This document shows positions 14,167 to 31,039 of a stretch of 64,000 nucleotides of DNA, piece by piece (positions within the stretch are counted from its first letter, which is position 1; the number at the start of each line of letters is the position of its first letter). The position numbers were made by a program, and so were the translations under genes. The stretch comes from Octopus sinensis (taxonomy: Eukaryota), in assembly GCF_006345805.1 (NCBI RefSeq), contig NW_021833059.1, positions 1 to 64,000 on the forward strand, in the 5' to 3' direction. The notes beneath the pieces were generated by a model that was not told the DNA's origin, made no database searches, and worked only from the letters and a program-made list of their open reading frames with translations.

Positions 14167-17044
14167 TCAATTCTCCAAATCAAGCCCCATTTTGTGAAAA
14201 GTCTCTTTCTGAATAGCAGAAGAATTAATATCCTCAGCAGTAAGCAACGACAACCCAAGCTGATCCTCCTACGATAAAGTAACCCGACTGCACAAAACCA
14301 GTCTAACTGGAATAGACATCTTTCTCAGAAAATGTTTAGCGTTTTGAATCGCCTCGTCTATCGACAAATCACTCAACGAATCTGGCAAATTCTCAAGAAT
14401 CCAATTCGGCAATTTTGACTTTTTATCTTCCCGTGCAAATCTCTAAAACTTTAAAAAATACCAAAAAACAAAATCAGCAAAAATAATTATTCCATAATCC
14501 GTCTTCCCTCTCAGTATTCTCCCCACACACTGTGCTGTATGTCGCATTGCATCAAACGTCAAAAACTCAGATTCAGAAATACAAAAATTCTCCCTAAGAA
14601 ACTCAAGTCGTGTCTGCCTTTAAAATCCCCCAACAACTCACCGCCAAAATCCTACTTTGTGTGTACACGTAGGGCACTCCATACATGACTACAGCCCGTC
14701 CGTAGTGGTTCTCTACAAAATAAAAACAACAAGCAAAAAACCAAAGTCGATCCCCTCAGAGACCTTTCCTCGAGCCACGGAAAGCAGCACGGCTCCTCTC
14801 CCATTATCACATGACTTAATACAACAAGTCAACTCACCTTCCTGTAATTAGAAAGAGCATATTCTGTCTCAAATGAGTTCATAGTCTCCACAAATATCAA
14901 TTTATAGCGCAGAATCTTGTCTATGAAGCCCTGTTCCTGCCACATTGCCACCACCTTCTCCTATCATGTCCCCCAAACACAACAAAACCATATAACTATA
15001 ACTCGTAAAGAAACAAGCCACTCCGTCGGGGACTACTCTGCACAACTCGACCAACAACAACCCATAATTACGGATAATGTCTAATTCGGTGATTAACATG
15101 ACTAAACCAATGTCATCTCTACTTTCATATCTCGTGGTTAATGTTACTTGATCACTTCCTCGAGTTACAATCTGATTTGATATCACAAATCTACCATTGG
15201 ACACACACTTGGTCTAGTTTGAGTCATTCCAAACGAATTTTTTACCGTCGAACTAAAATCCAGGATCCTCGGGTACATTTCCATAGGCACCAGAGTCTAA
15301 GCCACTCAAAAAACCACAAAAAACCCCAGATGTAAGTAAAATCGACCGAAAGCAACAGAATATACTTTTTGTTACGATTGTGGCATCCAAACAGCACAAA
15401 GTCAGTTTATTTTCGGCCGAGGATTTTATTTGGGAGTACTCGGCAGGCTCAATAACCACGACAAAACCATTTTTTGCTTCATGGACCAACAGGGTGGCCA
15501 ATCTAGCCAACTTTAAGACTGGTTTGAGGCCCTCAATGTCATTCAGCTTCAACGTTTCGATTATTGAAGCCAAACGAGATGAACAAAACCAGAAAATTGA
15601 ACAAAAAATGTCCAACTTGAGCGGTCTGGGCTCGATAAATGCAATTTTCTTGAGGTCTTTGACAAACAGTGAAATCGATTCTTTGATTACGTAATCACTC
15701 TCCATTCTGTATTTTATATAATTCAAAAAACGAAGCAGAAAGTGCAAAAAATGTTCAGCCTGTCTTATACTGCCCGGGACAGCCTCTGTTGTTCAAAAAG
15801 TGTGTTTTTACCTTCAAAAATTTGTTCTGGAAGCACTAAAAATGTCAACAACAAAACCCACGTGGATTCGATATTTGAATATAATTTTCGCGCTCTTTTT
15901 CAATCCTTTGAAGGTCAGAAACCAAATGGTCATATTCCCTCTGCAATGCTTCTTTGTCTGTTTCCCTCAGCCTTACATATTGACATATTTCCCTCACTTT
16001 TTGAGCTCAGTTTGGAGGGTTTTTATATTTCTTTCGGCCGAATTGACATTTTTCCAAGTTAGTTCGACAGTCAAAGCCTCAATGCACACATTGTCTGAGT
16101 TTAATAATTGCTTTTGTGGACAAAAAACCAATGTTATGAGCTTCGTCGAACACTACGATTGAATTTCTGGAGAGATCTTTGGCTACTCTGCTGGCAATTT
16201 GGGGATCAAGCATGTAGGAGTAATTGAAGACTATAATCTGCACTTTTGACAGCTAAAAATAGTAAAAATATGTAAATTACAAAATGACGAATTATAAAAT
16301 AAGGACAAGCATTTTCTTTGATTCCAAACTCCTTTAAATCGTCCTAAATAAAATTAAATTTGAAAATCCACCAAGTCATAAACACCACAAGGAAGGGGTA
16401 CAAATTCAGCCTTCTATTTATTAAAATTAATTAATATTTAATTAAATATAAATTTAATATTTATAAATTTAATTAACCGTATAGTAAGGACATGTGGGTA
16501 CTTGTTCATTATTAGCTGCCCTCTGTCTGGTGAGGGGAGATGTGAGGGAATAGCATTTACTATCCACATCAACCTCCCTAGAAACCTGGCCATTTTAGTT
16601 AAAAAGAACCTTCGGATGAATACACAGGTTCTTTCTAGCACTAAAAGCCACGGCGACAATCGGTGGTTTGGTCTCTACTTCAGTGTAGTAGTCCAAAAGT
16701 AATTTAAGTTCCCCCACAACCTTGTTAACCTCCCCCACTGTCCTTGAACAGTAAATTATTGAGTCTATTTTCCCTTTATGATACTACAAATATAGTTTTA
16801 TATACAACCAAATAGTAGGCTACAAGTAATGATAATATTGTTATTGTTTTGCCTGTTCCGGATGACATTTCTAAGACACTGTGGCCCTATTGGTGTGATA
16901 TTTAGTGGTACTTTTATGTCTAAGGATCGTTTTAGTTGTAACATGTAGGCATATTGCTCGGGGTAGATATATTCATAAGGGAATAGGATTTCTATTTCTT
17001 CTAAAGAGAATCTATTACATTAATTCACATGATGTCCACCTCAT
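14167..17044 (-). CDS. ERCC2: TFIIH helicase XPD (Rad3), many micro-introns
   Basis: [22 protein letters not shown].., [84 protein letters not shown]-terminal EDQLGLSLL. Not every internal junction was checked. Confidence 0.96.
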
Positions 17045-17303
17045 TATTATAATTTTAAAATTTTATTTAAAAAACTTTTTAATTTTTATTGATCGATATT
17101 AATTAATTTGATATTTTTAAATATATTTTTATTGTAAATTTTGACACTATAATTATTATTTTATATTTATTATTTTTATATACTGATTAATTTTTCTTAA
17201 TTTAATCACATTAATTTAATAACAATATTATTTTAAAATAATTATTTTTAAAAATAAATAAATACATTTTTCTTTTGTTATAAAAAACAATTAAAATTTT
17301 TAA
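17045..17303. promoter_or_regulatory. Shared divergent promoter region of XPD and GCLC
   Basis: About 260 bp, almost entirely A/T, between two outward-facing start codons; promoter function inferred from position. Confidence 0.6.
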
Positions 17304-29640: not shown

Positions 29641-29878
29641 TATTGTTGTGGTTTTAATAATTATTCGAATTTATTAAAATTATTTTTTATTTTTAAAAAC
29701 AATTTGGCGGGAAATTATGGAATTTGTTATTATTATTTAAATTTTTATGGAATCTAAAATTATAGAATTTAGTTTAATTTATTTAATTATTCTTTATTAT
29801 GTATAAATAATTAAATATTAATTAGATTTAAAGTATATTTTTGTGGTTACAAGTATCATTAGGAGAATCATCCTATTA

Positions 29879-31039
29879 ATGGCGCCAAATAGAAAAATAA
29901 ACATGTCAAAAATACAAATCCCGTCCAAAATAATCCCCAAAACTCCTCAGTAAATAATAGGGAAATATCCAACAGGGAAATATTCAATATCTCCGATTCC
30001 TTCACAATGTGTATAAAAGCCAAGGACTACGTCATATCCTGGACAGACTTTGACCGAGACATGCACAAAATAGGGCAAGGGGCATTTGGAATCATCTACA
30101 AAGCAGTCCACACGGAAACTCAGTTCCCAATGGCCATAAAAGTACCCCACCCTCCCCCACTCCCCAGAAATTAAGAATAACCGACGATTTGGACGACATA
30201 AAGCAAATTATGAGAGAAAAAGAAGTCGGTTTAATCGACTGTCCCCACACAGTCAAGTATTTCGGAGTTTTATTCGCACAAGTAAAAAAGCCCGCCATTT
30301 TTATCCAGGAATCGATATTAATGTGCATGGAACTAATGGCCACCTGCACAGAACAGCTCTACCAGCACGCCCGTCTGCGGAATCTGTCCATCGGGGACTG
30401 CATAATACGGAATATTGCCTCCTCGGTGGCCTTAGCCTATTCACTGGCAGACCCTCCTGGCTCTCAAGTATTTAAGCGAGAAAAAAATCGCGCATCGTGA
30501 CGTCAAACCGTCGAATATTCTGGTGGACAGGGAGGGGAATGTCAAGTTGTGTGATTTCGGGGTTTCTGGGTGTCTGGTCAACTCAGTCACCACATCTGTG
30601 GGGGTGGGATGCTCGGCCTACATGGCGGTGGGTGGTCCCGGTTATTTGTAGCCTGAGAAAATGGACGAATTCGCGGAAATTCGCGGAGTCACGGTAAAAG
30701 CGGAGATTTGGAGTTTGGGGATATCTCTGATCGAGATTGCCACCATGGAGCCTATTTATTTGAAGAAATATTCACAATTTCAGTGCTCGTGTAAGATTGT
30801 GAAGGATCCCCCTCCGTCCCTCCCCCCACAGTTGGGTTTCTCGCGGAATTTGGTGGGGTTTGTGGCCGAGTGGTATTTCCTGGTGTTTTCACGGTAGTTT
30901 GATTAAGAATCCTCAACGACGGGCCAATTTTGACGAATTGTTGGAGTCTGAGTTTATTTCGGGGATGATTGGATCGGGAAGAGAAGAACTTTCTCAGCTA
31001 GTTTTGCAGATTTCTGATTTGTTGCCAGCATTAAAATAA
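29879..31039 (+). CDS. Dual-specificity MAP kinase kinase (MKK4/3/6-like), six micro-introns
   Basis: Spliced: [79 protein letters not shown]. Introns include 30142-30167, 30628-30651 and 30873-30897. Confidence 0.92.

Follow-up and report, generated by a model that had tools for sequence, protein, structure and literature searches.

Most unicellular fungi have genes whose coding strand is C-biased at the 5' end and G-biased at the 3' end (McLean and Tirosh 2011, PMC3315797); as described there, this skew has the form ramp-plateau-ramp, the A/T skew is flat, and the cause is unsettled. We analyzed a 64,000-nucleotide (nt) stretch of DNA from an Octopus sinensis assembly (the window), namely, the first 64,000 nt of contig C9530 in the host assembly G000 (2.72 Gb, 13,516 contigs). 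It is likely the DNA of a dicyemid parasite (see below), and its genes for an XPD/ERCC2-type helicase (XPD), the glutamate-cysteine ligase catalytic subunit (GCLC), and a protein kinase (MAP2K) change composition along their length. An earlier reading of the window (the sequence-only reading) had claimed that such genes flip near their middle from A/C-rich to G/T-rich on the + strand, whichever strand they are on, and knew of no earlier description. The observation is real but mis-shaped and partly known. The best-fitting shape is a pair of ramps at the gene ends, and the supposed novelty was mistaken for the G/C part, which is known from fungi (PMC3315797); what differs here is the A-to-T part, together with the mirror symmetry.

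Like the fungal genes as presented in PMC3315797, those studied here have a C-rich 5' end and a G-rich 3' end, a sign change, and a ramp-plateau-ramp profile; four-fold degenerate sites and amino acids are affected. Unlike them, they belong to an animal parasite, their A/T skew changes along the gene, introns are shown to carry the signal, and the mirror symmetry lies in transitions only. In fungi the skew extends into the 3' UTR and into the promoter and 5' UTR, where it is strongest; here it is close to 0 upstream of the predicted ATG, and a reversed, much stronger class of genes exists. Since the A/T skew is not flat here, we regard the pattern as working like the fungal one and do not file it as the same. 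With tiny introns at every position of the gene, this fungal-type skew can be resolved here into an asymmetry of transitions that is mirror-symmetric and whose length scale is measured. A literature search that had most subscription journals outside its coverage listed no paper that describes, in its title or the start of its abstract, within-gene skew in dicyemids or the reversed step, and the word "skew" is absent from the available text of PMC6543705, PMC6736024, and PMC13644364.

Ramps at both ends of most genes

Within the window, the keto (G/T versus A/C) skew of intron cores climbs from left to right on the + strand (XPD, GCLC, and MAP2K pooled, n = 35, rho 0.68, p 8e-6; one XPD intron, whose value is 0.00, was placed one base off in this test). 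XPD contributes 18 short introns (rho 0.61), a neutral-site keto slope with z +4.4, and a sense strand whose 3' third is strongly G/T-rich. GCLC, with 11 scored introns (rho 0.72), is A-rich in its 5' part and G/T-rich in its 3' part, and MAP2K passes from C/A-rich to G/T-rich (6 introns, rho 0.89; neutral-site keto slope z +5.1). The introns quoted by the sequence-only reading for these genes (30142-30167, 30628-30651, 17800-17823, 19173-19202, 14614-14641, and 16887-16911) are indeed in place. When blocks were permuted over the whole span, 0 of 5,000 permutations matched the observed trend for each of the three genes. The same polarity had been read into three further features, with less success: a broken DEAD-box helicase copy (DDX54-like) gave p 0.008, which is weak because this liberal span test also returned p <= 0.011 for 6 of 32 non-gene spans of the window, and the trend was confirmed neither for an SFMBT-like gene (p 0.15) nor for a putative EXOG span (p 0.22). 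The pattern is its own reverse complement and therefore equals a sense strand that is C/A-rich 5' and G/T-rich 3'. The supposed flip near the gene middle does not describe XPD, in which the thirds have GC skews of -0.37, -0.12, and 0.00 on the + strand, placing the signal at its 3' end.

We then looked into 1.6 Mb of parasite contigs, with a further 94 kb held out. Genes were modeled with a purpose-written, intron-aware finder that is blind to position and whose starts are ab initio predictions. Filters on short introns (at least 2), repeat cover, length, and score passed 230 of 765 models; after removal of 41 models that had long introns or reverse transcriptase, and of 4 near-duplicates, the working set comprised 185 genes, which became 205 with 20 of the 22 held-out models. 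Of the 185 genes, 138 had a positive keto slope (z > 2 in 50, z < -2 in 12), 128 a positive G/C slope (including 62 of the 72 genes whose G+C at third codon positions [GC3] is below 0.45), and 140 a positive A-to-T slope. A slope computed from transitions only was positive in 146/185 genes of the working set and 17/20 held-out genes (163/205 overall, from about 1.76 Mb of contigs). At two-fold sites of the 72 genes with GC3 < 0.45, C/(C+T) fell from 0.42 to 0.30 as G/(G+A) rose from 0.32 to 0.46. The purine fraction is nearly constant in these majority genes, and the change therefore lies in transitions. Genes on the + and - strands behave alike, which bears out the view that each gene is its own strand-asymmetry unit. 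The signal is found in introns and at four-fold and two-fold sites, so that an amino-acid effect is excluded, as the sequence-only reading had argued; amino-acid use itself shifts from N to C terminus in the test of the majority pattern.

Evaluation of the shape of the skew in 151 genes favored two exponential ramps, with decay lengths of 350 bp at either end and amplitudes of -0.46 (5') and +0.39 (3'). By type of site, the amplitudes were -0.63/+0.46 in introns, -0.39/+0.32 at four-fold sites, and -0.42/+0.43 at two-fold sites. The gain in log-likelihood was 289 units for end ramps, 261 for a gradient linear in relative position, and 191 for a mid-gene step, and end ramps beat both competitors in 150 of 150 gene bootstraps. 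The relative slope drops with growing gene length (0.84, 0.56, and 0.33); a mid-gene sign change that scales with length, the form first proposed, does not hold. The ramps are the same whether the neighboring gene is far, in tandem, or opposite, and they are unchanged by the flanking base. The offset at mid-gene is small [G/(G+A) 0.446 versus C/(C+T) 0.415], and the process thus seems insensitive to which way a gene is transcribed.

Outside genes the skew soon vanishes. With positions resting on predicted gene starts, the GC skew of the 5' flank is 0.00 to 0.04 in bins up to 800 bp; that of the 3' flank is +0.12 at 50 to 100 bp, keeps its sign to about 200 to 300 bp after the stop, and is then 0. 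No mirror skew was found in either flank, and 201 unique non-genic segments had no trend. Models of transposon open reading frames, proposed by the sequence-only reading as a control, are without the pattern (keto slope positive in 5 of 25, none with z > 2; A/T slope negative in 20 of 25). APOBEC-like sequence context is missing from the ramps, and antisense transcription from neighbors was discarded as a cause on the indifference of the ramps to neighbor distance and orientation. Recent duplicate genes (3 pairs, 97 to 99.6% identical) were too few for a substitution test. A Spo11-like gene with tiny introns (L238:455-1680, contig C8459, - strand), found without selection for skew, is clearly C/A-rich where it begins and G/T-rich where it ends.

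Proposed causes of the ramps

C to T together with A to G on one strand is the signature of single-stranded DNA, and the measured transition asymmetry points to exposed single strands at gene edges. Our first choice, held tentatively and at somewhat less than an even chance, is that, in the germ line, DNA at gene edges passes briefly through a single-stranded state and incurs deamination-type damage. At each edge, the strand with its 3' end directed outward from the gene would be exposed for a short time and would undergo C to T and A to G changes. Breaks or nicks in open, AT-rich chromatin at both gene edges, if resected inwards, would leave exactly that strand single-stranded, and we infer that they could be its source. 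We place this reading first because of the exposed outward-3' strand, the symmetry of the ramps, and their blindness to the direction of transcription. Exposure of single-stranded DNA from both gene ends was among the mechanisms put forward by the sequence-only reading and agrees with the fitted shape; we also count the presence of a Spo11-like gene in the parasite in its favor.

Several points weigh against this reading. Edge breaks predict a mirror skew outside the gene, and none is seen, although the flanks are rich in repeats and perhaps not old enough to have registered one. Gene edges have the lowest G+C instead of the highest, unlike a gene-conversion hotspot. The G/C slope is also positive in 18 of the 25 transposon models (1 with z > 2), offset there by the negative A/T slope. 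The starts of the gene models are predicted, and only 62 of the 138 longest exons of an earlier model set had a Pfam match (2 of these were reverse transcriptases and were dropped). Lastly, mutation rather than selection is deduced from composition only. Searches for uracil glycosylase and dUTPase matched neither host nor parasite genes and were hence uninformative.

The course of the skew along the gene also fits transcription. According to a proposal made for fungi, factors that travel with RNA polymerase II at initiation and at termination would impose different regimes of mutagenesis or repair at the two ends. The skew halts around the ATG and fades some 200 to 300 bp past the stop, as the track of a polymerase would; transposon open reading frames are without it, and its ramp-plateau-ramp form is the one given in PMC3315797. 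We consider this explanation unlikely. It requires the template strand to be damaged at the 5' end, contrary to the usual geometry of the transcription bubble, and a directional process would not be expected to give both ends equal decay lengths and similar amplitudes. Moreover, the A/T skew is flat in the data of PMC3315797, whereas it rises here in 140/185 genes.

Selection on nascent RNA or DNA would account for confinement to genes in another way: C/A-rich starts would have little structure and few R-loops, and G/U-rich 3' ends would aid cleavage and termination, in line with a 3' G/T bias that runs past the stop. An adaptive option is raised in PMC3315797. We nevertheless regard selection as distinctly improbable, as introns are as strongly skewed as exons, no sequence context is apparent, and the conserved Ran, Pumilio, and PLC-beta genes tolerate the opposite composition. 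Fold-back pairing between the halves of a gene, rejected as a candidate in its own right, has no register-specific complementarity beyond composition (self 2.13, cross-gene 1.95).

Replication origins are a further alternative, located either inside genes with bacterial polarity or in gene-flanking open regions with yeast polarity, in which the leading strand is A/C-rich. Like replication skew at bacterial origins and in yeast (PMC3459929), the pattern here has a C/A to G/T sign change, and the reversed class described below has a plateaued step; unlike replication skew, it extends over 0.35 to 3 kb rather than tens of kilobases or more, is bounded by genes, and in the majority consists of two ramps. 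Yeast polarity (PMC3459929) would fit the majority sign if origins flanked the genes. The mid-gene step is, however, the worst of the fitted shapes for majority genes (191 versus 289 log-likelihood units), and the skew neither continues nor mirrors beyond genes, with young flanks as a caveat. The gene-centered origins of bacterial polarity suggested by the sequence-only reading predict plateaus that run past the gene edges, yet immediately before the predicted ATG the skew is close to 0. On the whole, we find origins quite unlikely.

A reversed class with an internal step

A second class of genes, found in some GC-rich clusters, has the opposite polarity, G-rich and then C-rich. In the window RPB10, which lies outside 14167..31039, appears to share this polarity, being G/T-rich at its start and C-rich at its end, judged by eye. 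The sequence-only reading had noted this one exception but not the class whose polarity it has; the step-and-plateau shape of that class suits an internal origin better than do the genes for which the reading had invoked one. The class is most conspicuous in the first 35 kb of contig C8999, where 8 of 10 GC-rich genes are reversed, with steps at 2.8-30 kb. At four-fold sites of nine C8999 genes with GC3 >= 0.63, the share of G drops from 0.59 to 0.20 and that of C climbs from 0.09 to 0.50; the introns of the same nine genes go from 0.38 to 0.15 for G and from 0.08 to 0.36 for C. Reversed genes of this contig encode ribophorin I, a TPR protein, Pumilio, an SH3 protein, a Ras-family protein (putatively Ran, by its sequence), and PLC-beta. 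The step is also visible in the whole-sequence track of an intronless KDEL receptor gene and a TDP-43-like gene, and in Pumilio the switch falls inside a single exon of conserved repeats.

In 16 genes chosen for their reversed sign, G/(G+C) is 0.64 to 0.80 before the step and 0.25 to 0.39 after it. The step lies at 0.22 to 0.85 of gene length, at a gene-specific position, and the plateaus are flat to 1 to 2 kb. A step beat a linear gradient by 84 log-likelihood units; when a linear gradient was simulated 40 times, this difference never exceeded -0.9, and so the step is no fitting artifact of such a gradient. A short hotspot kernel was rejected, since the best one with decay up to 800 bp scored 417 against 429 for the step; a decay of 1.5 kb or more remains compatible. 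The reversed skew resets with each gene across spacers of 100 to 300 bp, and one convergent pair, 6 bp apart, has a single common step.

The class is regional (heterogeneity p 0.001): the sign is negative in 8/9 genes on C9008, 6/7 on C8459, and 5/5 in a cluster on C6303 and positive in 7/9 on C8591. High GC3 is not the rule behind it. The negative sign was found in 23 of 24 genes with GC3 >= 0.65 of the first set (25 of 31 overall) but in only 2 of 7 held-out genes, and C8591 is opposite in 7/9, which counts against a link of the step to GC3. Adjacency to a 169-bp satellite was likewise dropped as a cause, as 8 further satellite-side stretches and 1 internal array held mostly majority-type or weak genes. 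On C8591, a 3.7-kb gene model (L228:5909-9637; C8591:45909-49637) oscillates from C-rich to G-rich and back, and may be two merged genes or have two switch sites.

The reversed step is new and far stronger than the majority skew; it is very large for a nuclear gene, with a four-fold G:C ratio that goes from about 6:1 to 1:2.5 in the strongest cluster. It alters the make-up of conserved proteins such as Pumilio and the putative Ran, in which the use of some amino acids changes by as much as three-fold from the N-terminal to the C-terminal third (Trp, Gly, and Glu up; Gln, Pro, and His down). Such shifts could distort phylogenies of a long-branch group with a disputed position. The step also pinpoints exact sites at which to seek origins or breaks.

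Known systems resemble this class in part. In the nanochromosomes of the ciliate Nyctotherus ovalis, both strands begin purine-rich at their 5' ends, which is also true of the reversed genes, and introns are tiny (21 to 29 nt); as described in PMC2633312, their skew occupies some 70 to 130 nt of the noncoding ends of true gene-sized chromosomes, whereas here it covers whole coding regions within contigs. In most of the vertebrate species examined, the GC skew of introns has opposite signs near the start and the end of a gene, the 5' end being G-rich (Polak et al. 2010, PMC2927911); the amplitude given there is about 0.1, compared with 0.5 to 0.8 in the reversed class, and the available text describes no internal step.

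Centers of mammalian recombination hotspots have a purine-to-pyrimidine flip with an amplitude of a few percent. The polarity is that of the reversed class; here the step lacks a G+C peak, and the skew does not decay within about 800 bp.

The cause of the step is a guess. As a second layer over the ramps, a fixed bidirectional start inside the gene, either an origin or a site of long-tract break repair, might produce the purine-to-pyrimidine, mainly G-to-C, step and the flat plateaus that reach the gene edges. A step with flat plateaus is the classic picture of a fixed switch in fork direction, and the A/C-rich leading strand of yeast would also fit internal origins in this class (PMC3459929); origins would, however, have to fire efficiently every 1 to 3 kb. 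The lack of a G+C peak at the step (term 0.04 +- 0.10, 16 selected genes) is counted against this second layer.

Composition is also bounded by genes in another respect. Intron G+C follows GC3 (rho 0.86, 174 genes), and intron length decreases with GC3 (rho -0.56). By general knowledge, this points to gene-limited repair or biased gene conversion. Gene-bounded G+C would also be explained, together with the sharp edges of the skew and its independence of neighbors, if genes were excised or amplified as gene-sized molecules that are resected and replicated from their ends and feed the germ-line copy through gene conversion. Extrachromosomal circles and selective DNA amplification have been reported in dicyemids (as cited in PMC6543705), and ciliates have gene-sized chromosomes with symmetric purine-rich 5' ends (PMC2633312, PMC7858049). 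The rearrangements of dicyemids were nevertheless reported for somatic cells, and the long circles were largely noncoding or mitochondrial (PMC6543705); the available text of PMC9292451 has nothing on circles or selective amplification. When gene regions were searched for at the DNA level, the copies listed were all partial or segmental, end-to-start junctions not being sought as such, and the single step common to a convergent pair does not suit molecules of one gene each. We consider such molecules very improbable. Genes lie in contigs of 77 to 959 kb, and no runs of two common telomere motifs were found in six sequences. A reading that joins both layers would make dicyemid genes germ-line gene-sized replicons, opened or excised at their edges (ramps) and regionally replicated or repaired from a fixed internal site (step). 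It is a long shot, which, if true, would link the selective amplification of DNA reported in dicyemids with a footprint that is inherited.

Source organism and other features of the window

The window has 33% G+C, the standard code, and tiny GT-AG introns. The assembly also contains a host-type GCLC gene with long introns on a chromosome-scale contig (C4); its exons are 94 to 95% identical to Octopus GCLC, whereas the window GCLC is about 40% identical to it, and the window is therefore from a second, co-sequenced organism. Repeats of the window recur on other contigs, and one unplaced contig, assumed from the common repeats to be of the same organism, has a paired-domain gene interrupted by an intron some 30 nt long. 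In gene-finder predictions, introns have a median length of 25 nt and 93% are under 30 nt (n = 1,571). Introns of 27 nt are given for Dicyema sp. (PMC6543705), and in the part of PMC13644364 available to us, only myxobolids and one dicyemid have introns this short among 51 animal genomes. Cephalopod kidneys are the habitat of dicyemids (PMC2222250). Tiny introns and a cephalopod host thus make a dicyemid the likely source. None of the matches listed in sequence searches was named for a dicyemid, no orthologue from another dicyemid was recognized there, and in one further search, whose matches came without names, the best identity was 56% or less.

A large part of this second genome sits in unplaced contigs of the assembly (e.g., C6303, C7757, C8697, C8911, and C8999; up to 959 kb), a little noticed portion of a parasite genome inside the assembly of its host. 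The 169-bp satellite lies at or near many contig ends (L016:1-860, the start of C8999, and C7758, C8695, C8591, C8459, C8595, C9008, and C9077), mostly in a fixed orientation towards the contig interior, and is possibly subtelomeric or centromeric.

Partial gene copies that retain introns are common, among them the 3' part of GCLC (window 18706-19491), Pumilio, and ribophorin I. A piece of XPD (window 14329-14946; L017:4467-5078) is inserted between the Pumilio and SH3 genes, three pieces of MAP2K (window 30020-30441) were found, and a Sar1-like GTPase has three copies; L196 and L209-L212 are among the partial-copy loci. A DNA search found no partial copy of PLC-beta. In partial copies of four genes, 47 sites differ in a way that changes the amino acid; if the changes are assigned to the copy, 27 went from G/C to A/T and 9 from A/T to G/C, and composition appears to decay once a sequence leaves the live gene.

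Table 1. Features of the window discussed in the text
Feature	Position	Strand	Basis and remarks
RPB10 gene	477..704	+	Pfam RNA_pol_N on both exons
XPD/ERCC2-type helicase gene	14167..17044	-	Pfam HBB, DEAD_2; name XPD from the sequence-only reading, fits the domains
Glutamate-cysteine ligase catalytic subunit (GCLC) gene	17304..19493	+	Pfam GCS
MBT/SLED (SFMBT-like) gene	20259..22670, approximate ends	-	Pfam MBT, SLED; gradient not significant
Protein kinase gene	29879..31039	+	Pfam Pkinase; name MAP2K from the sequence-only reading
Putative EXOG span	43035-43800		Name from the sequence-only reading
Broken DEAD-box helicase copy	46870..47830, approximate ends	+	DEAD-box motifs across several frames; named DDX54 by the sequence-only reading

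The reading frame of the window GCLC appears to shift in an A run (17670-17690), probably through an error in assembling this low-coverage contig and not because the gene is dead. For one exon of this gene (18646-18921), the top two matches are cephalopod proteins at 66 to 68% identity, with many other taxa scoring close. The divergent spacer between XPD and GCLC (17045-17303) is very AT-rich and passes on the + strand from T-rich to A-rich across the spacer into GCLC; a similar T-rich to A-rich change occurs at nucleosome-free regions of yeast.

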